Source: a virus
Taxonomy: Duplodnaviria > Caudoviricetes
IMG/VR virus record: IMGVR_UViG_3300031867_000034
Location: 15,798-79,797 of that record
Strand: one strand, 5' to 3'
Length of the DNA: 64,000 nucleotides
The translations under genes and the position numbers were made by a program. Shown in pieces: positions 19,944 through 64,000 of the stretch. The notes under the pieces are model-generated. The model saw only the letters and a list, made by a program, of their open reading frames with translations, had not been told where the DNA came from and searched no databases. The stretch's first letter is position 1, and the number at the start of each line of letters is the position of its first letter.

Positions 19944-21264
19944 ATGGCAACATATGAAATCACAGCAGAATTGAATCTGAAAAAGATTATTGCAGAATCA
20001 AGGGAAGTTGCACAAGCCTTAAATGAGTTTGCGGATAATCTTGAACGGATTGAAAAGAAGTATGCAAAGCCACAGGAAAGTGAGGCAGACAATGGGAATA
20101 ACAATCAACATAACTGAGGGCATCAACGACTATGAATTTTATAATGTGCCGAAAAAAGTAGCAAAAGCAATAATTACACTTCTACATGAGTGTGAGAAGG
20201 AAGATAGCACTATTGTTTCAGCTATCAGTGAGAGGTAGAAGATGAAAATGACGATTGAAGAAAGTCTTGAATGGCTTATATCAAGAAAAGAACACTATGA
20301 AATGGATGATAATTGTCAAGAATTAGCGAAAGCCTTAGATATAGCTATAGATACCATGCGTAAGTATCAGAAGATAAGAGAAATAGCTTTTCCATTACAG
20401 TTTTGTTCAACAGACAAACTTGAGCATGAAGCTATTATGAAAATATGTGAGGTATTAGAAGATGGGAATAGTAATTGCACATAGGCGTTGTCCTAAATGT
20501 GGTTGTAAATGTTTTAGAAATATGAATAGGTGTTGGCATTGTGGATATAAGTTTAGACGAGGGGAATGAAAGATGGGAATGTCGATTGAGAAAGCAATAG
20601 AGATAATAAACCATTATTTAGATTATCCCAAAGAAGAAGTAAGAAAAGCCTTATTAGTAGCAATAGAAATCATGCGCAAGTATCAGAAGATAGTCGATAT
20701 AGTTTCCTTGAATGATGAAGAATTTAAACAATGTGGGTTAAAGGAATTAAAGGAAATATTGGAGGTTATAGCTGATGGTAGGAATTAAAAACTTTGTAAT
20801 GCCATATAATTGCTATGATTGTGACCTACACAATTATCATGAGTGTGATTTTACAGGAGAGTCAATAGAAGAGGATTATTGTTGGAACGGAGATAGCAGA
20901 GAAAAGCATTGTCCTCTTAGAGAAGTAGAAGCAATTCCAAAAGACCAATACGAAGCAAGATTAAAGGCTGATATGGTGGCTATGCTTACAGAGTTACAGT
21001 TGGAGATTGAGGAATTAGATACACCGAATAATGGTAGTGCCTATATGGATTGTTCAGAGATTATCCAACAGAAAATAGACAGTTTGAAAGGGGCAGACAA
21101 TGACAGTAAAAGATCTTAAAGAGCAGTTAAACAATTATCCTGATAATTTGGAAGTAATACTCACAAATGATGATGTTTTTCTGCCAGGGTTATACAAGGC
21201 AACCGAAACAAGGCAAGAAGACGGATATTTGTATATTGATACGGATTTTGAAGAGAGGATTTAA
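19944..21264 (+). other. Run of small nin-like genes (19944-20117, 20092-20238, 20242-20484, 20462-20569, 20573-20788, 20775-21119, 21100-21264)
   Basis: Overlapping, translationally coupled ORFs. 20462-20569 (35-aa Zn ribbon) and 21100-21264 were read manually. Confidence 0.6.
20092..20218 (+). repeat. Perfect direct repeat, copy 1 (identical to 63874-64000)
   Basis: 127 bp identical, starting exactly at the ATG of a 48-aa ORF. Upstream flanks differ. Confidence 0.95.
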
Positions 21265-21312
21265 CATGAAGCATTAAATTTGTCCAGGAAGTCCGACTTC
21301 CGGTTAAAAAAA

Positions 21313-21353
21313 ATAAAAAGCCCTTGGGAGCTATCTCTCAAGGGTATTATTTT
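21313..21353 (-). terminator. Terminator ending the leftward operon
   Basis: CCCTTGGGAG-CTAT-CTCTCAAGGG stem with an A-tract on its left (U-tract on the minus strand). Confidence 0.6.
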
Positions 21354-21365
21354 TGTCCTATTAAG

Positions 21366-21671
21366 TTAATCAATCCATCCAGAGTATTCTAAAACTGTTA
21401 TTTGATCGTCTGTTATAGTTTCCGGTGTTCCTGAGTTATACATGATTGCTGCAGCTATATCGTTTATTTGCCAGTCTTCGCAGCCTTGCCAGGTGTAAAC
21501 CATGCCGGTGAACGTCTCAAGATAAACAATGTCATTTGTCCGGTCAATGTCCGTCACTATAAAAGTTTGTGGATATATTGAATCTTCGCCGCTTCTCTTG
21601 GCTTTTACTGTGGTGCTTGTCATAACTAAAATGCTGCTAAGTACTAACAATGCAAATATTATTCTTTTCAT
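21366..21671 (-). CDS. Secreted/lipoprotein-like hypothetical protein
   Basis: N-terminal signal-like hydrophobic stretch. GGAGG RBS. Confidence 0.6.
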   Translation of the reverse strand: MKRIIFALLVLSSILVMTSTTVKAKRSGEDSIYPQTFIVTDIDRTNDIVYLETFTGMVYTWQGCEDWQINDIAAAIMYNSGTPETITDDQITVLEYSGWID

Positions 21672-21684
21672 GGTGTTGGCCTCC

Positions 21685-23541: not shown

Positions 23542-23639
23542 TTGTTTGTCCTCCTTGTTTTGTCCTATTAGGGTTATTTGGTAAAACCTTCCGCCGGTAT
23601 CGGTCCGGTTGTGATTCTCTCCGGAAGGTGTGAAGGCTT

Positions 23640-24122
23640 TTAACCTTCAAGGGCTTTTTGCTGGTTCTCATATTGTTTGGATTCCCACATGTTGCGAAGG
23701 TCTTCCATGTTATAAACTTTTCCATTTCTCTTGTGGTATTCACCTTCGTGGAAGTACCAGGCCGCTTTTTTTGCTGAAAATCTAAAGTGTAATTCTTTTA
23801 GCTGATCCTTATATTCTTTTGTGTTACCTGTTACCCAGATCCAGAAACCAATCAGCTCAACTATGCAGCCGTTCATTTTTGTAAGTGTTCTAATCAGGTC
23901 GGCGAACTGTTCCGGTGTCTCGTCTGTTTCTTTTTCGTAAGTCTTGCCTTCATGATTCTTATGTACGTTCTTAAGTCTCTTAAATGCTTCCTGGTATTCT
24001 GAAAACATCTGTTTAAACTCTTCAGCGTTTCCGCCGTTGTCTGGGTGAAGATCCTTAGCTAACTTATGGAATGTTGCTTTAACCTCTTCAAGTGTTGTGC
24101 ACTGTGCGAAATATCTTGTCAT
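23640..24122 (-). CDS. J-domain (DnaJ-like) protein
   Basis: EEVKATFHKLAKDLHPDNGG contains the HPD motif. First gene of the leftward operon. Confidence 0.8.
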   Translation of the reverse strand: MTRYFAQCTTLEEVKATFHKLAKDLHPDNGGNAEEFKQMFSEYQEAFKRLKNVHKNHEGKTYEKETDETPEQFADLIRTLTKMNGCIVELIGFWIWVTGNTKEYKDQLKELHFRFSAKKAAWYFHEGEYHKRNGKVYNMEDLRNMWESKQYENQQKALEG

Positions 24123-24186
24123 ATCTTTGTCCTCCTATATGATTTATTTGGTTGGGTTGTTTGTTGTTTGGTTATCTTGTAAGTTA

Positions 24187-24275
24187 ATAATAAAACGTAA
24201 TGCACATTACGTCAATAAGCATATTTAACAAAATGCACATTACGGTTTTGTATATTTTGCATAATGTGCATTATG
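24187..24275. promoter_or_regulatory. Leftward promoter (TTGACG-17-TATTAT on minus) with three palindromic operators
   Basis: CGTAATG-CA-CATTACG (24196-24211), AATGCACATTACG (24232-24244), CATAATG-TG-CATTATG (24260-24275). Confidence 0.65.
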
Positions 24276-24345
24276 ATTATATGGTGTTATATTATCTTTA
24301 GGCGGTAGCTTTTCCCCTGTTTTTATATAGAGGAGGCTATAATAA

Positions 24346-24432
24346 ATGCTTTTATTTACTTATCAAGATATAATTCAGACTTGCTTATTATTAGTTGCTA
24401 TCATTGGAATAATATTGAAGGTTAAGAAATAA
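24346..24432 (+). CDS. 28-aa type I toxin-like peptide (Hol_Tox-like); not in ORF track
   Basis: MLLFTYQDIIQTCLLLVAIIGIILKVKK with AGGAGG RBS. Single TM helix with a basic tail. Confidence 0.75.
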   Translation: MLLFTYQDIIQTCLLLVAIIGIILKVKK

Positions 24433-24437
24433 AGACA

Positions 24438-24530
24438 TTAAAAAACCGCCCCAAAGTTTGGCGACTCAGGCGGTTTTTTAATAAACTGTAACTGTTAACC
24501 AATAGGGGCGAAGCTATCGCCTCTTTGTAA
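24438..24530 (-). ncRNA. Putative antisense antitoxin RNA
   Basis: Minus-strand promoter TTGAAA-17-TATATT (24563-24535). Shared bidirectional terminator at 24438-24481. Confidence 0.6.
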
Positions 24531-24577
24531 TAAAAATATATCATAATGTTAACAATTTTTCAATAAGGGGGTATTAT

Positions 24578-24811
24578 ATGCCAATAGATATAGAAAAAAG
24601 AAATAAGCGCCAATATGCTTGGGCCGTAGAAAATAAAGAGCGGCTTAATGTAATGCTAGACAAGGGAACCAGTGGAAGAATTGATAGTGTACTTACTGCC
24701 GGAGAAACAAGATCAAGCTTTATAAGGGAAGCAATAGAAAAAGAATTGTATTCTAGAGGATCAGAAAAGAAAATAGTAGTAGAAGATCCAGAGCTAAAAA
24801 ATCAAAAATAA
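24578..24811 (+). CDS. Ribbon-helix-helix (Arc-like) regulator
   Basis: KERLNVMLDKG…SSFIREAIEKEL. Confidence 0.65.
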   Translation: MPIDIEKRNKRQYAWAVENKERLNVMLDKGTSGRIDSVLTAGETRSSFIREAIEKELYSRGSEKKIVVEDPELKNQK

Positions 24812-26628: not shown

Positions 26629-26904
26629 ATGAAAACTACAGTGCTTGGAATAAGACTAAATGAATATCAGAGAGATAAGCTTAAAGGAATTGCGAAAGAG
26701 AACGGCGTTATTGAGGCTGAGCTTGTTCGTATTTTGTTAGATAGGCTTATTGAAGGAAAGATACAGATAAGAAACACTGCTGTTTTTGATGGTGCAGATA
26801 TCAGTGGACTTGTAAAGCTGGCAGACAAAAAAGGAATCAGTGTTCAATTATTGATAGATGCAATTGTGGAGCAGTTGAATGAGTCTAGCGGAAATAAGAG
26901 ATAA
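26629..26904 (+). CDS. Probable RHH-type DNA-binding protein
   Basis: TTVLGIRLNEYQRDKLKGIAKENG..EAELVRILL. Confidence 0.55.
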   Translation: MKTTVLGIRLNEYQRDKLKGIAKENGVIEAELVRILLDRLIEGKIQIRNTAVFDGADISGLVKLADKKGISVQLLIDAIVEQLNESSGNKR

Positions 26905-28381
26905 AGAAATAGAGTATTGTTCGCAGCATATTGTTTATTTTGTTGAGGAATATGGGCATATTGAGGATAGAAACAGCCCTGAGATAGTTGTTAAGTTCAA
27001 TCTTTGGGATGAACAGAGACAGGCCCTTAAGGATATGCTGGCACATAAATGGACAATAATACTCAAAGCTAGACAGCTTGGTATTTCTTGGCTTGTATTG
27101 CATTATGCTTGTTGGCTGATGCTTACCCATACAGGAAGATCCATTATTGGACTTTCAAAATCAGAGACAGAGGCTAAAGAGCTTGTTCGTAGAATGGTGC
27201 TTATTCTTAGGAATATGAGGGCACTTGTCAGAGAAAAGACGGATAAGACAGGCTGGGATGGTGCTTGGTTTGATTGGAATGCCTTGTCGGTAACTATTCA
27301 CTTTCCAGGTAAAAGCGATAGTACATTTCAGTGCTTTGCTTCTGGTGAGAATGCTGCAAGATCATTTACAGCGGACCTTATTATATTTGATGAATGGGCG
27401 TTTCAGCAATTTGATAGGTCAATTTGGACTGCTGCACTCCCGGTTGTAAATAGACCGCTTTCTGGTCAAGTAATAGGCGTTTCTACTATAGCAAGAGGCT
27501 CATTGTTTGAAGAGTTGTATACGACTCCAGACAATGGGTTTTTTAAGATATTTATTCCTTGGTATGCAGATCCTACACGTACACAGGAATGGTACGACAA
27601 TACAATGAAGCTTTCAGGAAAAGCGGCTATGTGGGCTGAGTACCCAGCAACAGTAGAGGAAGCATTAGAAGTACCTGGTGGAAGATTTTTTGAAGAGGTT
27701 TCAGATAGTTCCATTCTGTCAGATACGAGGTTGACACAGAATATAGTCTGCTATGTGGCTATGGACTATGGACTGGATATGTTGGCAGCTTATTGGATTA
27801 TTAGGGATGTATTTGGTAATTCTCAGATCATTCATGAAGAGCATGAGCCAAATTTGATTATAAGTGCTGCTGCCGACAGAATTTTAAGAGTCACACAGGA
27901 ACTTATTGAAAGAGAAGAGATAACAAGGGTTGAAGATTATCTTGCACCGCCGGATTTATGGAATAGGTCACAAGAAACCGGTAAATCAAGGGCTATTTTG
28001 TTTGCTGAAGCCGGATTAAACCTTACAAAAGTAAACAATGATATGAAGGCTGGCTGTATGGCTATCAAGGAAAATACAGCGCATGGTGAAGGTCAGAAGT
28101 CAAAACTCACTATTTATAAGAATTGTGCGCCTAATCTTTTGAATAGCCTAAAGAAAATACAGCATGATGATAAAAAGCCTGACATATATGCTAAAGATCC
28201 CCATGATTTAACGCATTCTGTTGATGGACTTAGGTATTATTGCATCTTTTGGACGCATGGTGGAAAGGTTCAGAAAGAGAATAAACGTAAAAAATGGCGT
28301 AAAGATCAGTGGGAAGACTATAAAAACGCTAATCTGAAGGATAAACAATACCTAATTAGTATATGGGGAGAACCTTACTAA
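26879..28381 (+). CDS. terL: Terminase large subunit
   Basis: Walker A IILKARQLGISW, Walker B LIIFDEWAF, nuclease AMDYG…HSVDGLRY. Confidence 0.92.
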   Translation: MSLAEIRDKEIEYCSQHIVYFVEEYGHIEDRNSPEIVVKFNLWDEQRQALKDMLAHKWTIILKARQLGISWLVLHYACWLMLTHTGRSIIGLSKSETEAKELVRRMVLILRNMRALVREKTDKTGWDGAWFDWNALSVTIHFPGKSDSTFQCFASGENAARSFTADLIIFDEWAFQQFDRSIWTAALPVVNRPLSGQVIGVSTIARGSLFEELYTTPDNGFFKIFIPWYADPTRTQEWYDNTMKLSGKAAMWAEYPATVEEALEVPGGRFFEEVSDSSILSDTRLTQNIVCYVAMDYGLDMLAAYWIIRDVFGNSQIIHEEHEPNLIISAAADRILRVTQELIEREEITRVEDYLAPPDLWNRSQETGKSRAILFAEAGLNLTKVNNDMKAGCMAIKENTAHGEGQKSKLTIYKNCAPNLLNSLKKIQHDDKKPDIYAKDPHDLTHSVDGLRYYCIFWTHGGKVQKENKRKKWRKDQWEDYKNANLKDKQYLISIWGEPY

Positions 28382-30327
28382 TGTTCGAGAGGCTAAAAAG
28401 AATGATAAAAAAGAACATAGAAACACCTAAAGACGTATCAATGTGGGCTAAAAGGCTTGAATTTGCTAAAAATCAGTATAATAGCGAACTTAAGAACATG
28501 AAAACCTATGAAAAGTACTATGAAGGTACCAGGGATGTTCAGCCGGACGCTAATAGGGGTATTACACCAAGCAAAAAAGCCACAAATGTACGTAATATTG
28601 TGTATGAGCTGATTGAATCTCAGGTTGACTCTTCAATTCCTATGCCAAAGATTAGGGCCATTCACCCTGAAGATGATGAACTTGCCAAGAAAATGGAAAA
28701 ATTTCTTGAAAACAAGGTAAAAACATGTGGTCTTACACTTGTAAATGATGCTCAGGAAAGAACAGTACCTATTATTGGTGGTGATTTCATGAGAGTTGAG
28801 TGGGATCAGAGAAGAGGTTTACATTCAGAAATTGGAGATTTAAAGATAACAGAGCTTCATCCTAAGAAAATAATTCCACAGGTCGGAGTTATTGATTTTG
28901 ATGAAATGGATTACTTCTTTATTCAGGAACTAATGACAAAGAAAACTGTAAAAAGAGTTTATGGTGAGGATGTTTCTGATTGTGAGAATGATTATCCTGA
29001 TATGACAGAGGACCTTGAAGGTGCTTCTACAAATGAAGATCTTGTAACTGTAAATACCGCATTCTACCGCAATGATGATGGTGGAGTCGGTATTTTTGTT
29101 TGGTGTGATTATGTAAAACTTCTTGATCTTGATGAATATGAGGCCAGATATCTTGATAGATGTGCTAAATGTGGCGCAGTTATGGTTAATGGTGTCTGTC
29201 CAGAATGTGGATCTAAGAAAGCCAAGAAATCTAAAGAGGATTATGAAGAACTGGTTGATGCTATTGAAGTCACTGTAACAGATGGTACAAAGCGTCAGAT
29301 TCCGGCTGTAGATATTACTCAGGAGCCTATGATAGATGAAATGGGAAATCCTGTTCTTAATGAATTTGGACAGCCTCAGATGAAGGTGGAACATACTAAA
29401 AAGAAGATACCATATTATAGACCTAACATTTATCCGGTCGTTCTTAGAAAAAATATCACTGCTCAGAATAAATTTGTTGGTGGTAGTGACGTAGCTGTTG
29501 TAATAGATCAGCAAGATACTATTAAAAAGCTTGGAACAAAGATAAATGAAAAGTTGCTAAAAGGTGGCTCCTATATAACTCTTCCTGAAGGAATAGAAAT
29601 AGAAAAAGATGGAGAAGAGCTAAATATTATCCGCTTAAGAAATCCAGCAGATAAATCTATGATAGATACGCTTACTCTTCAGCCTAATGTGCAGAACGAC
29701 CAAAACTATTTGGAAATCAATTATTCCTGGGCGAAGTCCTCACTTGGAATTACAGATGCTTTCCAGGGTAAATATGATGCTTCTGCAAGATCTGGTACTG
29801 CTAAGCAGTATTCAATCAATCAGGCTGCCGGACGTTTGGATTCTAAGAGAACACTTAAAAATGAAGCTTATGCAAAGCTTTATGAGGTTATGTTTAAGTT
29901 TTGGCTGGCCTTTTCTGATAGTCCTTCTGAGATTACAAGTGTTAATTCTGAAGGAACTGCAGAACATGAGACACTTGATAGAAAAGAGTTTTTAAGGCTT
30001 GACAGTGCCGGTGAATTTTACTGGAATGATGAATTTATATTCGAGACTGATCCTACATCAACACTTATGCAGAATAGAGAAGCTATGTGGAATCAGACAG
30101 ATATGAAATTACAGTCCGGTGCTTTTGGTCCTGTTGGTGATCTTGAAACAGCTAGAGCATATTGGACTATCATGAAGGCTAATGGTTATCCAAGTGCATC
30201 TGTTGTTTTGAATATTATAGAAGAAAGAATACAGAAACAACAGGAACAGGCTGCACAGATGGAAGCATTATCGGCTCAGCCTATGCCGGAGGAAGGAGGC
30301 TTGCAAGGTGAAATGCCCCTTATGTAA
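28381..30327 (+). CDS. Portal protein (podovirus-type) with Zn-ribbon insertion
   Basis: Follows terL with a TAATG overlap. 648 aa. Contains CAKCG…CPECG. Confidence 0.8.
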   Translation: MFERLKRMIKKNIETPKDVSMWAKRLEFAKNQYNSELKNMKTYEKYYEGTRDVQPDANRGITPSKKATNVRNIVYELIESQVDSSIPMPKIRAIHPEDDELAKKMEKFLENKVKTCGLTLVNDAQERTVPIIGGDFMRVEWDQRRGLHSEIGDLKITELHPKKIIPQVGVIDFDEMDYFFIQELMTKKTVKRVYGEDVSDCENDYPDMTEDLEGASTNEDLVTVNTAFYRNDDGGVGIFVWCDYVKLLDLDEYEARYLDRCAKCGAVMVNGVCPECGSKKAKKSKEDYEELVDAIEVTVTDGTKRQIPAVDITQEPMIDEMGNPVLNEFGQPQMKVEHTKKKIPYYRPNIYPVVLRKNITAQNKFVGGSDVAVVIDQQDTIKKLGTKINEKLLKGGSYITLPEGIEIEKDGEELNIIRLRNPADKSMIDTLTLQPNVQNDQNYLEINYSWAKSSLGITDAFQGKYDASARSGTAKQYSINQAAGRLDSKRTLKNEAYAKLYEVMFKFWLAFSDSPSEITSVNSEGTAEHETLDRKEFLRLDSAGEFYWNDEFIFETDPTSTLMQNREAMWNQTDMKLQSGAFGPVGDLETARAYWTIMKANGYPSASVVLNIIEERIQKQQEQAAQMEALSAQPMPEEGGLQGEMPLM

Positions 30328-31448: not shown

Positions 31449-31451
31449 ATT

Positions 31452-32477
31452 ATGGCAGTTACAGTTAGAGATAATACAAAGAATGGCGATCAGTGGAATG
31501 AGTGGGCAACCATCCTTGATGCTAAGATTTATGATGCTGATGCACAGCAGAACAAGTATGATGACCTTGTAAAAGATATTGTAGTAGAAAAGAAGTCTAA
31601 GAGATGGGGCGAGAAGTCCACAGTAATGGGCGGTCTTGGAGATTACGATATCAAGGACGAAGGTCAGGACGCAGCAGAGGACAGCTACGCAGAGGGCTAC
31701 GCAAAATTTATTGCGCACAATACCTTCTCAAAGAGCGTAGTTATCTCAAAGGAAATGAGAGACGATAATCAGTGGGATGAAGCAGAACAGAAGGTTGTTA
31801 ATCTTGTTCAGGCTTCTAAGAGAACAAGAGCTAAGTTCGTTACTGCTGCACTTGCTGCTTCAATCGGATCAACAACTACAATGACTTTTGGTGGAAAATC
31901 AGGACTTGACATTGCTTGCGCTGATGCACTTGCACTTTTCAATTCTGCACATCCTCTTAAGAACGCTGGACAGGGCGTTACACAGGGTAATCATTTCTCA
32001 AATGTACTCGGCAGCAACACTGTTGTTCTTAACAAGGTTGCTAACGCTATGAGAAACTTCAAGGATGATCGTGGAGAGGTTCTTGGTTTCACAGCAGATA
32101 CTATTATCTGCCCTGGTAATGATCCAGAGTATGAGGATTTCATTAAGAGAGTAATCGGATCTGACGGTGAAGTTGGTTCAAACAACAACGATATCAACAC
32201 ACAGAGAGGCCGCTGGAAACTCATTGTAAATCCTCTTTGGACACCTACAATCAGTGCAACCAATCATCCTCTTATTATCATGTCAAGCGAAGCTCTTAAG
32301 GAACTTCAGGGAACAAAGCTTTATAGCCGTACTCCACTTGATGTTGAGAACGAGGTTAAGGTTGAGTCCAGAAACATGGTATACAACGGATTTGAGAGAT
32401 ATTCTCTTGCATTCACAAACTGGCGCCATGTTGCACTTATCGGATCATCTGATGCTGATGCTCAGGCTCTTGCTTGA
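31452..32477 (+). CDS. Major capsid protein (HK97 fold)
   Basis: 341 aa after the scaffold gene. DALALFNSAHPL and GFERYSLAFTNWRHV are typical of Mu-gpT-like capsid proteins. Confidence 0.85.
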   Translation: MAVTVRDNTKNGDQWNEWATILDAKIYDADAQQNKYDDLVKDIVVEKKSKRWGEKSTVMGGLGDYDIKDEGQDAAEDSYAEGYAKFIAHNTFSKSVVISKEMRDDNQWDEAEQKVVNLVQASKRTRAKFVTAALAASIGSTTTMTFGGKSGLDIACADALALFNSAHPLKNAGQGVTQGNHFSNVLGSNTVVLNKVANAMRNFKDDRGEVLGFTADTIICPGNDPEYEDFIKRVIGSDGEVGSNNNDINTQRGRWKLIVNPLWTPTISATNHPLIIMSSEALKELQGTKLYSRTPLDVENEVKVESRNMVYNGFERYSLAFTNWRHVALIGSSDADAQALA

Positions 32478-32494
32478 TCTGTAAGAAATGTTTA

Positions 32495-32524
32495 GGGGCC
32501 GGATTAAATTCCGGCTCCTTTATT
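32495..32524 (+). terminator. Intrinsic terminator after the capsid gene
   Basis: GGGGCCGGA-TTAAAT-TCCGGCTCC followed by TTTATT. Confidence 0.7.
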
Positions 32525-32539
32525 AATAGGAGAAAAGAC

Positions 32540-32701
32540 ATGTTAAAAGTTGGAGATAGGCTAACAGTTGATGGACAGCTCGTAGAAGTTACCTATGTAA
32601 TGAATGAGAAGTCTTATGGTTATAAGCCTGTTAAGGAAGAAAAAACTGTTGAAACTGAGACAGAGGAAATAGCTCCCAAAAGGAGAAAAAGAAAGGTATA
32701 A
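32540..32701 (+). CDS. Small structural/accessory protein
   Basis: RBS AGGAG. Basic C-terminus. Confidence 0.55.
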   Translation: MLKVGDRLTVDGQLVEVTYVMNEKSYGYKPVKEEKTVETETEEIAPKRRKRKV

Positions 32702-32704
32702 AGC

Positions 32705-33673
32705 ATGACTACCTGGTTTGATATAAAGTTTACAACTTTACAGAAAATGTTTTCCATTACAGGATCACAGAAAACTATTCCTAATGATTCTGCGACAATG
32801 GAATATGTTAATGCTATGCCACAGGCATGTAATGAGGCGCTTCAGCTTCTTTCTACTTCTGGAAAATTCATCATAAAGGAATACCAATATGTGAATTATC
32901 CTTTTGAGAACATGCTTGGTAAGGATATGTTTCTGACATACTCCATAGTAAATGATTATAAAATCTTTTCAGTTGATGGGGCTAAGGCATATTATTTTAA
33001 GATATTCGGTAAACCTACTTCCTGTAAGCTTTATGTCGGTGATAAAGAGGTTATAAACTTCTATCCTGAAGACAATACGATTGATTCTAAAGTCTTTACT
33101 ACATTCAAGGGTAACATTACTTATCCTGCTTGGGGAGAAGATGAAGAGGAAAGCACCATTGTTAAGATTGTGATAGAGGCTAAAACCCCTGTTAATGTGA
33201 CAAATATGTGCTTTTATGACTGCGAGTTTGAGTCTGATAATGACGTACCACAGTATGAAAAGTATATCAAGATAAAGATGGATGATGTTCTGTCAGACTT
33301 CTACCAGCTTGCACCGGCTGAGTTATATGATCTTGGCATGTCTGGTGATGATTATATTGTGGCTAATAAATATTTTCAGGAAGCAGACAAGACGCTTGTT
33401 ATTCCTAGAAGTGAACAGGGAATATTTATTATTCACTATAGAGCATATCCACAGCAGATTACTTTAGAGACACCTGATGATGAAGAATTATCACTTGATC
33501 CGGAAGTCGCTGCATTACTTCCTTTATATATGGCTTCACAGCTATATAAAGATGATGATAACGCTATAGCTACAATTTACAGAAATGAATTTGAGGTAGG
33601 GCGTGACGCATTATCGCAAGGGGCATTGATACCTAAAAAAGAAAAATTTGTAACGTCTAGTGGGTGGGCATAA
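32705..33673 (+). CDS. Head-tail adaptor-like protein
   Basis: Position after capsid. C-terminal LLPLYMASQLYKDDD.A.ATIYRNEFE motif. Confidence 0.6.
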   Translation: MTTWFDIKFTTLQKMFSITGSQKTIPNDSATMEYVNAMPQACNEALQLLSTSGKFIIKEYQYVNYPFENMLGKDMFLTYSIVNDYKIFSVDGAKAYYFKIFGKPTSCKLYVGDKEVINFYPEDNTIDSKVFTTFKGNITYPAWGEDEEESTIVKIVIEAKTPVNVTNMCFYDCEFESDNDVPQYEKYIKIKMDDVLSDFYQLAPAELYDLGMSGDDYIVANKYFQEADKTLVIPRSEQGIFIIHYRAYPQQITLETPDDEELSLDPEVAALLPLYMASQLYKDDDNAIATIYRNEFEVGRDALSQGALIPKKEKFVTSSGWA

Positions 33674-35670
33674 TGGCTATTACATTTAATATTCCTTCAA
33701 GTCCAGCTAAACAAGTTTATCAAAGTGAGAATTTTCTTGGAGCAGATTTTACTTCTGAAGCTTCTACTGTAGATGATACTAAATCACCTAATGTAGAAAA
33801 CATGATAAGATCTGTTCCAGGCAAAATCCGGAAAAGGATGGGCTATAAGCTGTTTGCTGATTATGGCGAATGTATCTATGGTGTTCACCATCTTTCAACA
33901 ACAGATGTATGGCTTATTCATGCTGGTAATAAACTTTATAATTTGACAGCGCCAAAAGGTTCTAAGTGGATAGATCATGTGAACAACTATATTGTGGATC
34001 ATGATACACCACCAAACAATATCCTTTTTCAGACTGGTGATGTAAGCATTACTCTTGTTTATACCGGAATGGCTGAGCATAGATCTGTTAGTTTTCAGCT
34101 TAATCAGAAATTGGTTATCCTTGATGGAACAAAGATAAGAGTATATGACGGAAGTACTGTTCAGCCTATAGAAGATATTGCTTATATTCCTACACTTACT
34201 ATTGCTAAGGATTATACTGGTGGTGGTACGGATTATGAGCCGCTTAATCTTTTGCAACCAGCATTTATAGAACTGTTCTATGTTAAAAGCGATCAGGCCA
34301 GTGTTAAGACGTTTCAATTATCATTTGGCGATCTTGACTCTACAACAGTAAAAGCATGGCTTCTAGATAGTAATGGTAATTGGGTTGAAAAGACAGAAGG
34401 TACACATTTTAGTGTTAATAGATCAACAGGAGTTGTTACCTTTACCGCTGCGCCAGGGGCAAGTCCTATAACCGGTGAAGATAATGTAAAAATACAGGCT
34501 TATCGTACTGTTAGTGGTTATGCTGACAGAATAAACCATTGTACTATTGGTGCTATGTTCGGTGTTAATGGTGCTGGTGATAGGCTGTTTGTATCAGGTA
34601 ATCCGGATCAGGGTGTTAATTCTGATGGTGACTTATATACCTTTATCAATTGTGACTGGTGGAGTCAGCAATATGATCCTACTTATTTTGCTGATGTGTG
34701 GTATTCAAAACTTGGTTCAGATACTTCCGCAATTATGGGATATTCAATCATAAACAACTACCTTGCAGCACATAAAGATAGTAATGAGCTTACACAGTCA
34801 ATACTTATTCGTGAAGGCGATCTTGTAGATGATGAACCAGTATTCAAGTTAATAAATACTCTTCAGGGAGCCGGAGCTATTTCTAAGTATTGTTTTTCAT
34901 ACTTGGCAACAGAGCCGGTTTTTTTGACTCGATTAGGAATATTTGCTGTTACTGCACAGGATATAACCGGTGAAAAATATGCACAGGACAGAAGCTATTA
35001 TCTTGAAGGAAAACTTTTGAAAGAGGACAACTTAGAGAATGCTATAGCTTATTCCTGGAAAGATTATTATATGTTGGCAATAAACGATCATTTATATATT
35101 CTTGATGGTTTGCAGCCAATACATACAGATAGATCTAGGCCATATGCTACTAGACAGTACGTAGGATTTTACTTTACAAATATTCCAGCTAATACAATCT
35201 TTGAAATCAATGGAGATTTATACTTTGGATCTTCTGATGGAAAAGTATTTAAGTGGTATACGGATGATAAAGCCTTGGATTCCTACAATGATAATGGTGA
35301 AGCAATAAGAGCCGTATGGGAAACAGCAGATATATCAGAAAAGTTATTTTATAAGAAGAAAACCTATAGATATGTAGCTTTAAGATGTATGCCAGAGATT
35401 GCTTCTTCTGTTCAGATATGGGCGCAGAAGGAAGGTCAATGGACAGAGCTTAAGGATGATAAGTCAACTCTTAAGTATTTCTCTTATGAAAACTTACAGT
35501 ATTCCAAGTTGACATATTCCTGTAATAGAACTCAAAAAGTTACAGCTACAAAGATAAGGCTTAAGAAACTGGACCATGTGAGATTTAGATTTATAAATGA
35601 TCTGTTGAATGAGCCTTTAGGCATAAATGATTTTGCTGTTGAATACACACAGGCCGGAAATGTTAGATAA
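33673..35670 (+). CDS. Tail nozzle/stabilisation protein (P22 gp10-like)
   Basis: ~665-aa beta-rich protein at the podoviral nozzle position. No tape-measure gene in this segment. Confidence 0.6.
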   Translation: MAITFNIPSSPAKQVYQSENFLGADFTSEASTVDDTKSPNVENMIRSVPGKIRKRMGYKLFADYGECIYGVHHLSTTDVWLIHAGNKLYNLTAPKGSKWIDHVNNYIVDHDTPPNNILFQTGDVSITLVYTGMAEHRSVSFQLNQKLVILDGTKIRVYDGSTVQPIEDIAYIPTLTIAKDYTGGGTDYEPLNLLQPAFIELFYVKSDQASVKTFQLSFGDLDSTTVKAWLLDSNGNWVEKTEGTHFSVNRSTGVVTFTAAPGASPITGEDNVKIQAYRTVSGYADRINHCTIGAMFGVNGAGDRLFVSGNPDQGVNSDGDLYTFINCDWWSQQYDPTYFADVWYSKLGSDTSAIMGYSIINNYLAAHKDSNELTQSILIREGDLVDDEPVFKLINTLQGAGAISKYCFSYLATEPVFLTRLGIFAVTAQDITGEKYAQDRSYYLEGKLLKEDNLENAIAYSWKDYYMLAINDHLYILDGLQPIHTDRSRPYATRQYVGFYFTNIPANTIFEINGDLYFGSSDGKVFKWYTDDKALDSYNDNGEAIRAVWETADISEKLFYKKKTYRYVALRCMPEIASSVQIWAQKEGQWTELKDDKSTLKYFSYENLQYSKLTYSCNRTQKVTATKIRLKKLDHVRFRFINDLLNEPLGINDFAVEYTQAGNVR

Positions 35671-35682
35671 TGGAGGTATAAG

Positions 35683-36282: not shown

Positions 36283-36293
36283 GGAGGTACAAA

Positions 36294-37178: not shown

Positions 37179-37179
37179 A

Positions 37180-50821: not shown

Positions 50822-51823
50822 TTAATTAAAAGGTAATTCTTCATCTATGTCGTCTGGAATAGTCATAAACGCATCAACTTTATTCCACGCTTGCAATATG
50901 TTGCTATTAAAAAAGACTGAATGACTTCCGCATATTGGGCAATAACGCGCATTAGAAGGCAATATAATATTACAATTAGAATTAGAACAAGCATTTATTA
51001 AACGCGTACCACAAATTTGGCAGAAATGACCTTCAATAGCAGTTTCTTCATTTCCGCATATAGGACATTTTAGTAACTTATTTTCCGTATTAACTGCTAG
51101 CATTGGATATTTCATGTTATCGCCATTACCCCATTCCATTTTGTGTCCGCATATAATACATATAGAGCTTTTTTGAATTGAACCATATCCACAAATGGGA
51201 CACACTTTTTTATAAAAGAAATTGCTAAATATTTTAAGTATTCTGTCCGTGAATCCTAATTTAGCGTAATTAGCATAATCTAATTCTAAAAAAGAAAGTC
51301 TTGTAGCTGCTGCTAAATAAGATATTCCAAAAATAGAACAAATATTATCTAAAGACTGGTCTTTCAAATGTTTAATCATGCTTACTGGGACAAGTACATT
51401 CCTCGCGAAAGCATTGGCTTCATTTTCAAGAACTTTATATTCTTTAAAAGAAAGACTACTAAATTCATTTTTAGGGATTACAACTGTTTTTTCATATTTG
51501 GCCAGGTGCCCTAAATAAACATGCCCTATTTCATGCATTAGAGTAAAACGAACTCTTCCTTCAATGAGGGTATCATTATAATAGATAATACAATCATGGC
51601 CATCATAAAAAGTTATTGCGTCTTTGGTATGTAATTTTGCACATACTTCGTCAACTGTTATATCGTTTTGTCTTGCAACATTAGAATATGTCTCTAGATC
51701 TAAGCCTATTTCATGTATTATATCAATAGGATTTACCGGAAAAGAATTAATATTAAAGTCTTCAAGAAATTCACAGGCGCGCTTGCTGCAATAATAATAA
51801 TCTGCATAAAAAGGAATGTTCAT
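50822..51823 (-). CDS. ImmA/IrrE-family metallopeptidase with C-terminal Zn ribbons
   Basis: RVRFTLMHEIGH…ENEANAFARNVL. Multiple CPICG motifs. Confidence 0.85.
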   Translation of the reverse strand: MNIPFYADYYYCSKRACEFLEDFNINSFPVNPIDIIHEIGLDLETYSNVARQNDITVDEVCAKLHTKDAITFYDGHDCIIYYNDTLIEGRVRFTLMHEIGHVYLGHLAKYEKTVVIPKNEFSSLSFKEYKVLENEANAFARNVLVPVSMIKHLKDQSLDNICSIFGISYLAAATRLSFLELDYANYAKLGFTDRILKIFSNFFYKKVCPICGYGSIQKSSICIICGHKMEWGNGDNMKYPMLAVNTENKLLKCPICGNEETAIEGHFCQICGTRLINACSNSNCNIILPSNARYCPICGSHSVFFNSNILQAWNKVDAFMTIPDDIDEELPFN

Positions 51824-52164
51824 TAATTATTTTTCCGCTTATTATCTTTATACATTTTTATCATGTTTACTACAAAGCTTTGATCATCTTCCGACATGTC
51901 TTGCATTTCTCTAGCAGCGGATCTTATCAGAGAAGAAACTTCTGATGTTTCAGAACTTAGACCTTCAGTACCCATTAATTCACCCGCAGAAACATCAAAG
52001 ATTTCTGCAAACTGCATAATTTTACTTTGAGGCAAATCTATGTCGCCTTTTTCTATTTTTGCAATAGAAGAACGATCAGTATAGTTTGCCTTTTTAGCTA
52101 ATTCTTCTTGTGACCAACCATGCATAATGCGATATTTTTTTATGTTCTTATATAATTCAAGCAT
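51823..52164 (-). CDS. CI-like XRE repressor
   Basis: WSQEELAKKANYTDRSSIAKIEKG. Divergent from the cro-like gene. Confidence 0.88.
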   Translation of the reverse strand: MLELYKNIKKYRIMHGWSQEELAKKANYTDRSSIAKIEKGDIDLPQSKIMQFAEIFDVSAGELMGTEGLSSETSEVSSLIRSAAREMQDMSEDDQSFVVNMIKMYKDNKRKNN

Positions 52165-52528: not shown

Positions 52529-53236
52529 ATGAACGAACTAAAAACATTCAACTTTGATACTCAGACAGTATCAGCAAGGGAGTTACACGAACAACTCAAC
52601 ATTGAAACACCTTTTCACAAATGGTTTCCAAGAATGTGTGAGTACGGATTTACAGAAGGTACAGACTTTTGGACAAAAATGTCCGAAAGTACCGGAGGTA
52701 GACCAGCAACTGAATATGAAGTCTCAATCGACATGGCAAAAGAAATCTGCATGATCCAGAGAACACCGGAAGGCAAGAGAGTAAGAGAGTACCTTATCCA
52801 GCTTGAAAGAGCATGGAATACACCAGAGCTTGTAATGGCTAGAGGGCTTCAAGCGTCACAGAAGCTATTGGAAGAGAGCCAGCAGAAAATCAAACTGCTA
52901 ACTGCAGAAAATGAGCGCATGAAGCCCAAGGAAATATTTGCAGATGCAGTAACAGCCTCAGATAGCTCGATTCTTGTAAGAGAGTTGGCAAAGATACTCA
53001 GACAGAATGGTGTGGAAATAGGTGAAAAGAGGCTATATAAATGGCTGCGTGATAATGGCTACATCATTAAAGGTACTACACAACCTACACAAAGGGCTAT
53101 GGAAATGGGGCTGTTTGAGGTTATCGAAAGAACAACTCAGAGAGCAGATCTTCCACCAATAGTAACACGAACAACAAAAGTTACCGGCAAAGGACAGCAA
53201 TACTTCATTAATAAGTTTTTATCTAAAGCATCATAA
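52529..53236 (+). CDS. Antirepressor (AntA/AntB plus KilAC domain)
   Basis: VSARELHEQL…DMAKEICMIQRT; KPKEIFADAV…ILVRELAK…TKVTGKGQQYFINKFL. Confidence 0.9.
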   Translation: MNELKTFNFDTQTVSARELHEQLNIETPFHKWFPRMCEYGFTEGTDFWTKMSESTGGRPATEYEVSIDMAKEICMIQRTPEGKRVREYLIQLERAWNTPELVMARGLQASQKLLEESQQKIKLLTAENERMKPKEIFADAVTASDSSILVRELAKILRQNGVEIGEKRLYKWLRDNGYIIKGTTQPTQRAMEMGLFEVIERTTQRADLPPIVTRTTKVTGKGQQYFINKFLSKAS

Positions 53237-57063: not shown

Positions 57064-57538
57064 AGATATAAAAAACCAATATTCAATGAAAGAAATTCTT
57101 GATAGGTGTGGTATTCAGGTAGACAGACACGGCTTTTGTAATTGCCCTTTGCATAAAGGTGATCGAACTGCATCAATGAAAGTATATGAAAAAGACTTTT
57201 ATTGTTTTGGATGTGGTAAAGGTGGAGACTTTATTACTTTTGTAAAGCTATATCAAGGTCTTAATTTTCAGGAAGCATGTGAGTGGATATCCGGCGAAAC
57301 ACTAACAAGAAAAACAAAAAGACAGTTGGCAGTTGCCCAGATCAAGAGAAGAGAAAAGGAGAATGCTTTAAAGCGTACTAAAGAGGAATTAAAACAAGTG
57401 AATGATTCTTTTAGCGGTTTATGGCATTCTCTTTTAACTTCTGAGCCATTTAGTGACGAATGGACAGAAAACTATAACAAGTGGCAATTGCTATGTTACA
57501 AACAAGAACAACTATTAACAGAGTTGGGGGTTATATGA
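57053..57538 (+). CDS. CHC2 zinc-finger (primase Zn-binding) protein
   Basis: CPLH.GDRTASM.VY…FYCFGCG.GGD.I.FV. Confidence 0.85.
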   Translation: MNVEDIKNQYSMKEILDRCGIQVDRHGFCNCPLHKGDRTASMKVYEKDFYCFGCGKGGDFITFVKLYQGLNFQEACEWISGETLTRKTKRQLAVAQIKRREKENALKRTKEELKQVNDSFSGLWHSLLTSEPFSDEWTENYNKWQLLCYKQEQLLTELGVI

Positions 57539-59415
57539 CACAAGAAACAATAGAAGTAATGTCGAAAGACCAATTACTTAGCAAAGAAACCCTGATTGAG
57601 ATATTTGAGGAAGAGTCTGAAGCTGATAAGCAACTTTTACTAATTGCCATGACTGACAGGGCAAAAGAGCTTAAGTGTGTACAGGCTGTTAAATCATTTA
57701 TAAAGGCTTTTACTGATGACGTTAAGGCAGCTTCAAAATCAGACAGACATATGAATAATCAGACTGATTTTGGATATGTGAATGGTGAGCTTAACTGTGG
57801 TAACTGGATTGCGGATAACAATGGTATAAGGGTACTTACTATTTTTGGTGAGAAATTAGCATGTTATCATCCGATACTTCCGGTTGAACGTCTGTACAAC
57901 ATAGAGACTAAGACAGAAAAAATCACATTAGCATATCTAAGGGACAAGGACTGGAAGGAGATAACAGTCGATAAAGGGCTGATTGCAAGTTCTTCTAAGA
58001 TTGTTAAACTTGCAGACTATGGTGTAGCGGTGACTTCTGAAACAGCTAAATCATTGGTGCAGTACTTATGTGATATAGAGAACATGAATCCTATAAAGCT
58101 TAAGAACAGTACTAGCAAATTTGGTTGGCATGGAAAAGACTTTATACCTTATGACAAGAGTGTTGTTTTTGATGATGAATCCAGATTTAAAGATTTAGCT
58201 AGTTCCTTGAATGAGCGTGGCAGCTTTGAGATTTGGCTAGAGCTGACAAGGAAGATACGCAAAAACACTAAACACTACGAACCACAAGTATATTTAGCGG
58301 CCTCTTTTGCCAGTGTCCTAGTAAGTAGGCTTAATATGCTTCCTTTTATCGTCAATCTGTGGGGGAGTACTGGAAAAGGTAAAACAGTAGCGCTTATGTT
58401 GGCTGCATCTGTTTGGGCTGATCCAGGAGAAAACAAGTATATCACTGACAGCTATGCAACACAGAATGCTTTTGAGATAAGGCTGGATATATTAAATCAT
58501 CTGCCACTTCTTATGGATGATCTATCAAAGGTCAGGGATAAGCTCAACGACAACTTTACAGACTTGATATATCTTCTCTGTTCAGGAAAAGGAAAAGACA
58601 GAAGTAATGTCGATTTAGGGCTGAACAAGGTTAAAACATGGAGTAATACCATTCTTTCAAACATGGAAAGGCCGCTTGCTACAGACACCATGAAGGGCGG
58701 CGCCATCAATAGAATACTGGATTTTGAAATGCAAGATGGTTACATATTTGAAAATGGTAATGCTGTTGTAGAGGTCCTTAAAGACAACTATGGTTTTGCC
58801 GGAGTTAAGTTTATTGACATAGTAAAAGAACTTCCTATAGAAGTACTTAACAACATTAGGAAAGACTTTGAGCAGAAGATCAAGGAAGAGGCCAAGAAAC
58901 AGAACTCAGAGAAGGAAGAAAAGCAGATACTTCCAATGTCTTTACTTCTGACAGCGGATAAGATAGCCACTGATTATATTTTTGAGGATGGCATTTATTT
59001 GGATCTTCCTACAATGGTGAGCCAGCTTAAGGATGTGAATGAAGTATCTGAGGGACAAAGGGCTTATAACGCCATCATGGACTATAAGGAAATGTACGCC
59101 GGAAGATTTAGCGCTGAAAATGAGTTTAAAGCTGAGTCCTGGGGATTTGAAAAGGATGGTTTTTTAAATATTATTCCCACAGTCCTTAAGGATATAGCAG
59201 CAAAAGAGAACTTTTCTGTTAAGGCTTTTTGCTCCTGGGCAAAATCAAAAGATATTTTAAAAGCTAACAATTCTAAAAATCAAAATGTTGTAGGTGTAAA
59301 TGGAAAAACAAAAAGATTTTATACTATCAAAACAGATTATACACCTGAAAGCAGCATGAATACTGGGGATGATGGCTTTGAAGATGCTATACAAGAAGAG
59401 TTACCTTTTAATTGA
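57535..59415 (+). CDS. DUF927 primase-associated SF3-like helicase
   Basis: Walker A WGSTGKGKT, LPLLMDD, GKGKDRSN. Confidence 0.8.
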   Translation: MTQETIEVMSKDQLLSKETLIEIFEEESEADKQLLLIAMTDRAKELKCVQAVKSFIKAFTDDVKAASKSDRHMNNQTDFGYVNGELNCGNWIADNNGIRVLTIFGEKLACYHPILPVERLYNIETKTEKITLAYLRDKDWKEITVDKGLIASSSKIVKLADYGVAVTSETAKSLVQYLCDIENMNPIKLKNSTSKFGWHGKDFIPYDKSVVFDDESRFKDLASSLNERGSFEIWLELTRKIRKNTKHYEPQVYLAASFASVLVSRLNMLPFIVNLWGSTGKGKTVALMLAASVWADPGENKYITDSYATQNAFEIRLDILNHLPLLMDDLSKVRDKLNDNFTDLIYLLCSGKGKDRSNVDLGLNKVKTWSNTILSNMERPLATDTMKGGAINRILDFEMQDGYIFENGNAVVEVLKDNYGFAGVKFIDIVKELPIEVLNNIRKDFEQKIKEEAKKQNSEKEEKQILPMSLLLTADKIATDYIFEDGIYLDLPTMVSQLKDVNEVSEGQRAYNAIMDYKEMYAGRFSAENEFKAESWGFEKDGFLNIIPTVLKDIAAKENFSVKAFCSWAKSKDILKANNSKNQNVVGVNGKTKRFYTIKTDYTPESSMNTGDDGFEDAIQEELPFN

Positions 59416-59611: not shown

Positions 59612-59625
59612 AAAAGGGGGATTTT

Positions 59626-62189: not shown

Positions 62190-62464
62190 CAAGAGAAGAA
62201 GCCGTTGCAGTATTAAAAGCATTTATGGAAAATCCGTTATTTGGTGATACGCATAAAGCCGCTTTTAATATAGCGATACATGATATTAAAGCCTATCACA
62301 AATGGAATTTGAATGAATTGGTCTTAACTCAAAAAGAAAATGAGCAAGAGCCTATTCTTGACAAGATAGATGAAATAATCACAGATGCCCTTGATAAGAG
62401 TACAGACCAAAAGGAAAGTCAAACACTTAGATGGGTATTAGATAAGATAAGCGAGGTAATGTAA
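62186..62464 (+). CDS. Hypothetical protein
   Basis: MTREEA…EQEPILDKI. Confidence 0.55.
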   Translation: MTREEAVAVLKAFMENPLFGDTHKAAFNIAIHDIKAYHKWNLNELVLTQKENEQEPILDKIDEIITDALDKSTDQKESQTLRWVLDKISEVM

Positions 62465-62979
62465 TGGAGTTGACAGAGCAGGAACTTAATAATGAAGTCT
62501 GGAAAGATATAAAAGGCTATGAGGGATTGTACCAAGTCAGCAATATGGGAAGAGTGAAAAGTGTTGCAAGAACAGTTACTTGGAAAAATCAGAGTGTAAA
62601 AAGATATAAGGAACGAATAATGAAAACACGGCAGAAACAAGGTTATGTTTCTGTTTGCCTTTTTAAAGATGATATACGCCGGGATTTCAAGGTTCATAGA
62701 TTAGTTGCAGAAGCATTTATATCTAACCCTAACAATCTTCCGTTTATAAATCATATTGATGAAAACAAACTGAACAATAAAGTTGAGAACTTGGAATGGT
62801 GTAGCCGTGAATATAACAACAACTATGGACAAAGAAATGGAAAGATAAGCATGACTCAAAAGAAGAATAGGCTTCTAAAAATGGTAAGTGAACATTCAAT
62901 ATCATTAGATGGAAATAAGTATATTTCTATACCGATACTTCAAAAGTTAATCGAAGATGTATATAACTTTTACGGATGA
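62464..62979 (+). CDS. NUMOD4-HNH homing endonuclease
   Basis: EVWKDIKGYEGLYQVSNMGRVKS; VHRLVAEAFI.NP…INHIDENKLNN.VENLEWC. Confidence 0.9.
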   Translation: MELTEQELNNEVWKDIKGYEGLYQVSNMGRVKSVARTVTWKNQSVKRYKERIMKTRQKQGYVSVCLFKDDIRRDFKVHRLVAEAFISNPNNLPFINHIDENKLNNKVENLEWCSREYNNNYGQRNGKISMTQKKNRLLKMVSEHSISLDGNKYISIPILQKLIEDVYNFYG

Positions 62980-63281
62980 TTACTATATCGACAAATACAA
63001 GGCAGAAAGTGAGGAATACAATGGCTGACATAGAATTAGTAATTAAGATACCAGAAAAAGTGTATAAAGCAATATGCGACAAAAATGCGTTAGGTTGCGA
63101 TATTGGTGACATCAAAAATATTATTCGTAATGGTACACCACTTCCAAAAGTACATGGAAAGTTGTTTGATGAAAATGAGATAAAGAAAGAAGCTATAAGG
63201 TGTGAGTGGAGTAGAGCCATGTATGATAAACTTGACCACACACTATCTTATATGAAACCAATCATAGAAGCAGATAAGTAG
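62976..63281 (+). CDS. Hypothetical protein
   Basis: IELVIKIPE…IRNGTPLPK.HG.L.D motif common in phage nin regions. Confidence 0.55.
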   Translation: MITISTNTRQKVRNTMADIELVIKIPEKVYKAICDKNALGCDIGDIKNIIRNGTPLPKVHGKLFDENEIKKEAIRCEWSRAMYDKLDHTLSYMKPIIEADK

Positions 63282-63321
63282 AACAATTAAATGTTTACAA
63301 ATGAAAGGTGACTAAAAAAGA

Positions 63322-63714
63322 ATGATTGAATTATATCCTACCAAATGCAATATATGCGGAGGGAAAGTAGAATATACATCAAATGCAAAAATTTATGGAA
63401 GACAATACGGAAGTGGTTATTGTTATCTATGTAAAGAATGTGGAGCGTTTGTTGGTACTCATAAACCAAGACCTAGACAGGCAATGGGAATATTAGCTGA
63501 TGCTAAAATGCGAGATTTAAGAATGCAATGCCATGAGTTATTTGACTCAATATGGAGAAATAACAAACATCCAGTAGCAAAAAGACGTAAAACTTATGCT
63601 TGGTTGGCAGAGAAATTAGATATACCTGTATATGAATGTCATTTTGGATATATGGATAGAGATATGTTGAATAAAGCATTAAATATATTAAAAGCAGATA
63701 AGGAGCAGGAATGA
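63322..63714 (+). CDS. DUF3268-like zinc-finger protein
   Basis: CNICGG…CYLC..CGAFVGTH…A.GILAD…R..CH..FD.IW…CHFG. Confidence 0.75.
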   Translation: MIELYPTKCNICGGKVEYTSNAKIYGRQYGSGYCYLCKECGAFVGTHKPRPRQAMGILADAKMRDLRMQCHELFDSIWRNNKHPVAKRRKTYAWLAEKLDIPVYECHFGYMDRDMLNKALNILKADKEQE

Positions 63715-63899
63715 GCAAATATTCTGTTGAAGATACAGACAATCCAAAACTCAAAGTGCTTATAGAGGAAATGGCATATCTTGAATGGATTAACAGAGCT
63801 TTAAAACAACAGGTACAGATAAATGAGAATAGGCTTGCAGAAATTGATAAAGAGCTAGTTAAGGAGCAGGAAGATGGGAATAACAATCAACATAACTGA
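63711..63899 (+). CDS. Hypothetical coiled-coil protein
   Basis: ORF track. Its 3' end overlaps the repeat. Confidence 0.5.
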   Translation: MSKYSVEDTDNPKLKVLIEEMAYLEWINRALKQQVQINENRLAEIDKELVKEQEDGNNNQHN

Positions 63900-64000
63900 G
63901 GGCATCAACGACTATGAATTTTATAATGTGCCGAAAAAAGTAGCAAAAGCAATAATTACACTTCTACATGAGTGTGAGAAGGAAGATAGCACTATTGTTT
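63874..64000 (+). repeat. Perfect direct repeat, copy 2 (truncated by window end)
   Basis: Identical to 20092-20218. Confidence 0.95.

Follow-up and report, generated by a model that had tools for sequence, protein, structure and literature searches.

A 79,797-bp viral record in IMG/VR (IMGVR_UViG_3300031867_000034) carries the genes of two tailed phages, here called A and B, next to a long perfect direct repeat, raising the question of how two phage genomes came to lie on one contig. The sequence analyzed here, referred to as the window, is a 64,000-nt stretch corresponding to contig positions 15798-79797, and the end of the window is also the end of the contig. In the original prediction, B was described from the window alone as a complete podovirus-like genome nested in a siphovirus genome, produced either by a real phage-phage co-integration or by an assembler walking through a shared repeat.

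To clarify the arrangement, the repeats were mapped over the whole contig. The predicted repeat is exact: window positions 20092-20218 and 63874-64000 are 100% identical over 127 nt at a spacing of 43,782, and to the left of the repeat the two copies match at chance level (7-12/30 nt). In addition, the first 127 nt of the contig are identical to window positions 20550-20676 (contig 1-127 = 36347-36473), and contig positions 79671-79797 equal 35889-36015 over exactly 127 nt. Both contig ends, that is, overlap internal sites by exactly 127 nt, and no further long repeats were found in the contig besides these two overlaps. With the repeat at the right end termed V1 and the opening 127-mer termed V2, the contig is ordered V2 - phage A - V1 - 331 nt - V2 - phage B - V1, giving circle sizes of 36,346 bp for A and 43,782 bp for B. 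The window is divided as follows.

1-20091, plus strand: right-hand 20 kb of phage A (contig 15798-35888), from PHROG matches and collinearity with the 37.7-kb relative G002
20092-20218, plus strand: left copy of V1, the 127-nt repeat, a vertex at which the A edge and the B edge would both end
20092-20676, plus strand: full common segment of 585 bp (V1 + 331 nt + V2), from the exact repeat extents
20550-20676, plus strand: V2, internal copy of the opening 127-mer of the contig, an exact match
20677-63873, plus strand: body of phage B, 43,197 bp (43,782 bp as a circle with the shared segment), from PHROG and Pfam matches and collinearity with the relatives G004 and G001
63874-64000, plus strand: right copy of V1, final 127 nt of the contig, at which the B edge would come back to the vertex visited at 20092

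Phage A possesses one full set of phage modules based on PHROG matches. Its part in the window contains tail genes, an endolysin, a minus-strand regulatory block, Sak, NinB, an HNH endonuclease, a DnaD-like replisome organiser and small ORFs. The remaining genes, from the terminase to the tape-measure position, are located upstream of the window (contig 1-15797); contig 4-16 kb is occupied by terminase, portal, head and tail genes. Since the genes missing from the window are found at the contig start, A is an uninterrupted, circularly permuted genome set in front of B, and it is siphovirus-like. No integrase or serine recombinase was found in A and no host DNA flanks it; searches also returned no Pfam family for its minus-strand block, and none found relatives for the 206-aa gene that precedes the repeat.

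The genes of phage B were annotated with PHROG and Pfam as follows.

26879-28381, plus strand: terminase
28363-30327, plus strand: portal
31452-32477, plus strand: capsid
33664-39297, plus strand: structural and fibre proteins
40661-41467, plus strand: endolysin
42617-48700, plus strand: 2027-aa LPD3-domain protein
48995-50062, minus strand: tyrosine integrase, the sole one
50822-51823, minus strand: ImmA-like protein
51823-52164, minus strand: repressor
52529-53236, plus strand: Ant (anti-repressor)
listed between Ant and the primase/helicase: Gam, Sak4 and a nuclease (recombination)
57481-59415, plus strand: primase/helicase
62464-62979, plus strand: HNH protein

As predicted, the 43,782 bp hold one set of temperate-phage modules, comprising terminase, portal, capsid, fibres, endolysin, integrase, repressor, anti-repressor, recombination and primase/helicase. 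B is a complete temperate tailed-phage genome, because it has one of each module and its size fits that of complete relatives (43,782 bp versus 44.7 and 45.3 kb). It is possibly podovirus-like; among the subset of B ORFs tested, no match to a major-tail or tape-measure PHROG was detected. A tRNA scan for a clue to attP/attB found none, and megablast searches against GenBank phages with 24 kb of B and 20 kb of A gave no match.

The two halves have little in common outside the shared segment. Only 7 of the 61 A proteins have a partial-or-better match in B, and the endolysins of A and B are 52% identical over 46 aa in the C-terminal domain. The contrast in GATC sites on which the original prediction had drawn was also borne out: A has 2 sites where 115 are expected, and B has 145 for an expectation of 144. 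The relatives follow the same division, with no GATC site in G002 and 197 in G004; depletion of GATC was found in 21 of 79 A-type loci and in 0 of 39 B-type loci. IMG/VR and CheckV list the contig as a single virus record with 100% completeness, which would suit one genuine ~80-kb phage with two sets of virion genes. However, such a phage would need two unrelated sets of every module: the contig has two terminases, portals, capsid genes, endolysins and replication modules of unrelated types, its halves match stand-alone genomes of 37.7 and 45.3 kb, and the GATC composition shifts sharply at the junction. This explanation was rejected and deserves next to no credence.

The contig layout likewise contradicts the nesting of B in A. 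Viewed over the 64 kb of the window only, A lies before B and B is bounded by a direct repeat, as would be seen if B had entered A as a prophage within a prophage or by site-specific insertion. On the contig, however, nothing follows the second repeat copy. The original prediction expected the sequence beyond 64,000 to return to phage A genes, but the contig stops there and the remainder of A lies before the window; A is collinear with an uninterrupted relative and is not split. As the original prediction had argued, the junction is not the work of the integrase, the sole copy of which lies ~29 kb away, and the repeat is no att core but belongs to a coding stretch of 585 bp that A and B share. 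Together with the lack of a recombinase and of a host flank in A, these features led to the rejection of insertion, which is very improbable.

The original prediction had also placed the junction in a shared 48-aa gene. This gene is indeed included, but the sharing extends beyond it, over an 80-aa gene and half-way into a third small gene, so that the stretch common to A and B is 585 bp rather than 127 (600 bp with one mismatch). The 48-aa gene lies at 20092-20238 and the 80-aa gene at 20242-20484; of the third, a 71-aa gene at 20573-20788, the stretch contains the first ~35 codons. V1 begins exactly at the ATG of the 48-aa gene, and the right edge falls just past a conserved MRKYQKI motif, which is present in three small ORFs. 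No Pfam family was found in the three ORFs of the segment. Exact 26- and 32-nt probes from it had no match in IMG/VR or JGI metagenome contigs, from which the record itself was excluded.

The common 585 bp is most likely real biology, namely an exchange of a small-gene cassette by recombination, and the 100% identity over its length suggests that the event was very recent; a few variant sites within it may have been collapsed by the assembler. Phage mosaicism at gene boundaries and conserved linkers is familiar from modular theory and from lambdoid and dairy phages. The present cassette resembles it in being identical and sharply bounded, by a start codon on the left and MRKYQKI on the right, in otherwise unrelated genomes. 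It differs in its partners, which are of unlike virion type and GATC usage, and in its 100% identity over 585 bp.

Taken together, the contig very probably combines the genomes of two separate rumen phages (~36 kb and ~44 kb), strung together by a short-read assembler through the shared 585 bp. This reading is supported by the exact k-sized overlaps, by the completeness of both halves and by the self-closure of both genome types in relatives, and it corresponds to the second option of the original prediction. The JGI metagenome workflow uses metaSPAdes with k = 33,55,77,99,127 (doi 10.1101/2020.09.30.320929). The 127-nt overlaps equal the final k of this workflow, suggesting that k = 127 was used for this contig. 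The record would then trace a single assembler path across a figure-8 de Bruijn graph of two phages from the same rumen-type sample. Both genomes would be circular or circularly permuted, and the 585-bp stretch of small early genes is longer than k and could not be bridged by short reads. In the graph, a single shared edge would be accompanied by two long ones, both leading from V2 to V1. If the assembler wrote out the A edge, the shared edge and the B edge, the contig would open with the 127-mer V2 and close with the 127-mer V1. A and B would be physically separate molecules.

The relatives are consistent with an assembler join of two circles, their self-closure being seen in different strains whose proteins are 70-95% identical to those of A and B. 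The A-type genome G002 (37,734 bp, 96% complete) is collinear with A from end to end and joins the right-end genes of A (contig 31.6-34.6 kb) to the left-end genes (contig 0.65-4 kb, followed by the terminase) over ~3.8 kb of small ORFs. The B-type genome G004 from IMG/VR (45,267 bp, 100% complete, with a 127-nt direct terminal repeat) puts the right-end genes of B, from the primase/helicase onward, beside the left-end genes of B, and it contains no structural, lysis or replication genes of A. A third genome, G001, a distant B-type phage at the protein level, is also collinear with B; a DNA search for the junction region in it returned nothing. Relative contigs are up to 45.6 kb for the B type and mostly 34-46 kb for the A type, with none near 80 kb, and in the same 90% protein clusters the longest contigs measure 42.2 kb for the B terminase and 34.8 kb for the A portal. 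By exact-protein cluster look-up, the junction-flanking proteins were found on this contig alone, and neither the probe scans nor the protein clusters yielded an independent assembly of exactly these two strains.

The first option of the original prediction, a real phage-phage co-integrate, would arise by recombination in the 585 bp in a co-infected cell. The product would be a circle of 80,128 bp, or else a mixed concatemer, and each of its two junctions would consist of the shared segment. Identity over 585 bp is ample for homologous recombination, and lambda-type co-integrates or heterodimers form in this way between circular replicons. Recombination genes are present in each phage, with Sak and NinB on the A side and Gam, Sak4 and a nuclease on the B side, and the likeness of the endolysin C-termini hints at a common host. 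The predicted structure, in which each genome is flanked by direct copies of the shared segment as in lambda-type co-integrates, is that of the contig, though an assembly artefact predicts the same layout. An 80,128-bp molecule would yield an identical graph and contig. For the same reason the contig is not positive evidence for fusion, as short reads cannot separate a fused molecule from two circles, and the option gained no positive support here: the k-sized overlaps at both contig ends are marks of an assembler, and none of 119 relative loci (80 with the A terminase and 39 with the B portal) combines structural modules of both types. Unlike known co-integrates, the fused molecule is here a predicted one. 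At 80 kb, it would be about twice as long as every complete relative of either type, so its packaging by either capsid would be unexpected, and such intermediates would be minority species beside the parental genomes. A real co-integrate is therefore unlikely. It is quite unlikely, in particular, that the contig is a genuine recombination intermediate of siphovirus-like and podovirus-like rumen phages fused through a 585-bp early-gene cassette; if true, it would directly capture the movement of modules from one virion type to another and between genomes whose GATC strategies are opposite.

An assembler join also has close parallels among known artefacts. Two circular replicons sharing a segment longer than both k and the insert size give figure-8 graphs, from which a single path uses each unique edge once. 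The present contig agrees with such inter-genome repeat chimeras without apparent difference and is a textbook case with both vertices kept at the contig ends. Concatenated IMG/VR contigs with k-mer terminal overlaps, known from CheckV (PMC8116208), are alike in an overlap equal to the final k, in a length ~2x that expected and in a graph cycle that short reads cannot resolve. In the CheckV concatemers, however, the same genome is repeated head to tail and is detected by a k-mer frequency >1 (PMC8116208), whereas in the present record the joined genomes differ and the link is an inter-genome repeat. The k-mer frequency consequently stays close to 1, and the record is counted as 100% complete.

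In summary, the main relevance of this finding lies in data hygiene more than in biology. The 79.8-kb, 100% complete IMG/VR record should be split into genomes of 36.3 kb and 43.8 kb. Joins of different genomes escape the CheckV k-mer-frequency test, which catches only same-genome repeats (PMC8116208), and a simple flag for them would be a terminal k-mer (127 nt) that is found again in the interior of the contig. The biological weight is small, amounting to ordinary phage mosaicism between two ordinary rumen phages, and the 100% identical cassette is usable evidence that A and B meet in the same host population.

The window carries, as originally predicted, an exact direct repeat: positions 20092-20218 are identical to 63874-64000 (127 nt, 100% identity, spacing 43,782). 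The left flanks of the two copies match at 7-12 of 30 positions, the chance level, and the right copy is a mere contig end, because the window closes at the last base of the IMG/VR virus record (contig 15798-79797 of 79,797 bp). Self-comparison of the whole contig revealed a further identical pair of exactly 127 nt, contig 1-127 and contig 36347-36473 (window 20550-20676), followed by one mismatch, 14 further matches and then divergence; no further long repeats were found in this comparison. With the two repeats termed V1 and V2, the siphovirus-like phage A and the temperate phage B, the contig reads V2, A body, V1, 331 nt, V2, B body, V1.

Repeats and bodies of the contig
Contig 35889-36015 and 79671-79797: V1, 127-mer
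Contig 1-127 and 36347-36473: V2, 127-mer
Contig 128-35888: A body
Contig 36474-79670: B body

This order corresponds to a single pass through a figure-8 assembly graph in which the A and B edges each lead from V2 to V1 and the edge common to both leads from V1 to V2, with the k-sized vertices retained on each edge. The implied circles would measure 36,346 bp (A) and 43,782 bp (B), with 585 identical bases in common. The JGI metagenome workflow employs metaSPAdes at k = 33,55,77,99,127, the final k being 127 (doi 10.1101/2020.09.30.320929). The direct terminal repeat of the B-type relative G004 from IMG/VR (IMGVR_UViG_3300028887_000013, loci L142-L144) is also exactly 127 nt long; the k-sized mark therefore occurs in this collection, and, given that length, the "direct terminal repeat" of G004 is the k-overlap of a circular assembly path rather than a repeat of biological origin.

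Genes of phage A (contig 1-35888) were annotated by PHROG, and the modules of both phages are listed in contig order.

Phage A
Small ORFs, ParB-like protein
Packaging and head: terminase large subunit, portal, head morphogenesis protein, scaffold, major head protein
GIY-YIG homing endonuclease, major tail protein, 640-aa ORF at the tape-measure position
Tail proteins, endolysin
Minus strand: block without family matches
Sak, NinB, HNH endonuclease, DnaD-like replisome organiser
Small ORFs leading into V1

Phage B
Small ORFs, terminase, portal, capsid
Large structural protein, fibre-like proteins, endolysin
Window 42617-48700: 2027-aa protein with LPD3 domain
Tyrosine integrase, the sole one on the contig
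ImmA-like protease, repressor, Ant
Gam, Sak4, nuclease, primase/helicase, HNH endonuclease
Small ORFs leading into V1

No integrase or serine recombinase was detectable in A. Outside the shared segment, only 7 of the 61 predicted A proteins match anything in B, all partially and at 27-57% identity; the two genomes are unrelated apart from that segment. The only recognisable domain of the 2027-aa B protein is LPD3 (large polyvalent protein-associated; residues 582-701), and counterparts with 28-34% identity are present in G004 and in G001, another B-type relative; it is possibly ejected or polyvalent. The GIY-YIG gene of A (contig 11463-12140, before the window) lies between the head and tail genes. 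The close A-type relative G002 lacks it at this position, and a distantly related one (30% identity) separates its terminase from its portal (L145, ~24046-24606 of G002); two other relatives (L020, L027) have one at A's position. These genes resemble mobile endonucleases that move about inside the structural module. HNH endonuclease genes with 48% identity lie between the scaffold and capsid genes of A (contig 8874-9416, before the window) and near the right end of B (window 62464-62979), and represent another small mobile element common to both.

All contig proteins were mapped onto 80 loci around A-terminase relatives and 39 around B-portal relatives, and the whole records of G002 and G004 were compared gene by gene. 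None of the 80 + 39 loci mixes A and B structural modules. Most A-type contigs measure 34-46 kb and a single one measures 55 kb; no B-type contig exceeds 45.6 kb. All of A is matched collinearly, at 70-99% protein identity, by G002 (37,734 bp, 96% complete), which links the right-end genes of A (contig 31599-34640) to the left-end genes (653, 1360, 1565, 3008 and terminase 4013) across ~3.8 kb of variable small ORFs, a link also visible at the DNA level. No structural, lysis or replication genes of A were found in G004 (45,267 bp, terminal repeat, 100% complete), where the A-labelled matches are short and confined to small ORFs; here, the B right-end genes (contig 71049-76793, including the primase/helicase) directly adjoin the B left-end small genes, followed by the terminase. 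The more distant G001, also of B type, is complete at 44,696 bp. In the protein-cluster look-up, members of the B-terminase cluster (90% identity) occur on contigs of up to 42,171 bp and those of the A-portal cluster on contigs of up to 34,826 bp, and the exact proteins are recorded on this contig only.

In view of these relatives, B does not interrupt A; A is a complete, circularly permuted genome standing in front of B. The predicted nesting of B within A is thus not supported, A being uninterrupted and the contig ending at the right V1 copy, and nested or single-genome readings, even taken together, are very improbable. Had recombination within the 585 bp produced a real co-integrate of 80,128 bp, the graph and the contig would be identical. 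Four points speak against such a co-integrate as the predominant molecule: both genome types occur stand-alone at half its size, none of the relatives shows the fused arrangement, its size is about double the length of any complete A-type or B-type relative, and the contig ends are assembler marks rather than biological ends. The co-integrate put forward in the original prediction is therefore unlikely; the evidence supports the other option given there, that the assembler walked through a shared repeat, and allows it to be put in precise terms. In all likelihood, A and B are separate genomes joined by the assembler, and the joined arrangement is not a real genomic structure.

According to the CheckV authors, some IMG/VR contigs far exceed the expected length and contain the same genome repeated; they regard these as probable assembly artefacts and detect them by k-mer frequency (PMC8116208). 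Unlike such contigs, two different genomes are joined here at an inter-genome repeat, a join to which the k-mer-frequency test is blind, and the record is listed as 100% complete despite it.

GATC occurs twice in A (contig 2622 and 27350) versus 115 expected sites, and 145 times in B versus 144 expected; the corresponding values are 0 versus 120 in G002 and 197 versus 164 in G004. Observed/expected ratios below 0.2 were found in 21 of 79 A-type loci versus 0 of 39 B-type loci. The GATC contrast follows lineage. The switch is located at the shared segment, which fits two genomes with separate histories, and a fused molecule is also compatible with it. Avoidance is near total in A and total in G002 (L145+L146), and only about one quarter of the more distant A-type relatives are depleted, suggesting that the A/G002 sublineage has been exposed to a GATC-cutting restriction system, which B tolerates or evades by other means.

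The shared segment occupies the same position in both phages, between the replication/small-ORF region and the packaging genes. It starts at the ATG of a 48-aa gene, upstream of which each phage has its own ribosome-binding site, runs on through an 80-aa gene and stops ~35 codons into a third small gene, directly after the motif MRKYQKI. No Pfam families were found in these three ORFs. This motif is found again in the 80-aa gene and in both forms of the third gene, that of A and that of B; these three small ORFs have a conserved KAL..AI..MRKYQKI block in common (window 20318-20389 and 20634-20705, and, before the window, contig 85-154). Since the identical segment stops right after it, the motif resembles a joint at which recombination has combined halves of small genes. 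Most of the weak homologues of the third gene and its downstream neighbour were seen in B-type relatives, at the corresponding position, faintly suggesting that the cassette is native to the B lineage. The endolysins of A (window 6355-7020) and B (40661-41467) have unrelated catalytic parts and a common C-terminal domain (52% identity over 46 aa; phrog_7698 and phrog_16241 in both), probably a cell-wall-binding module, which hints at a host common to both phages. The start-codon and motif boundaries, with 100% identity between them (an upper bound for the 331-nt middle, where a few variant sites may have been collapsed during assembly), look like the pattern of a recent recombinational exchange between co-infecting phages. 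What is left as real biology is most likely an ordinary exchange of a cassette, of very recent date, between two rumen phages that are unrelated to each other.
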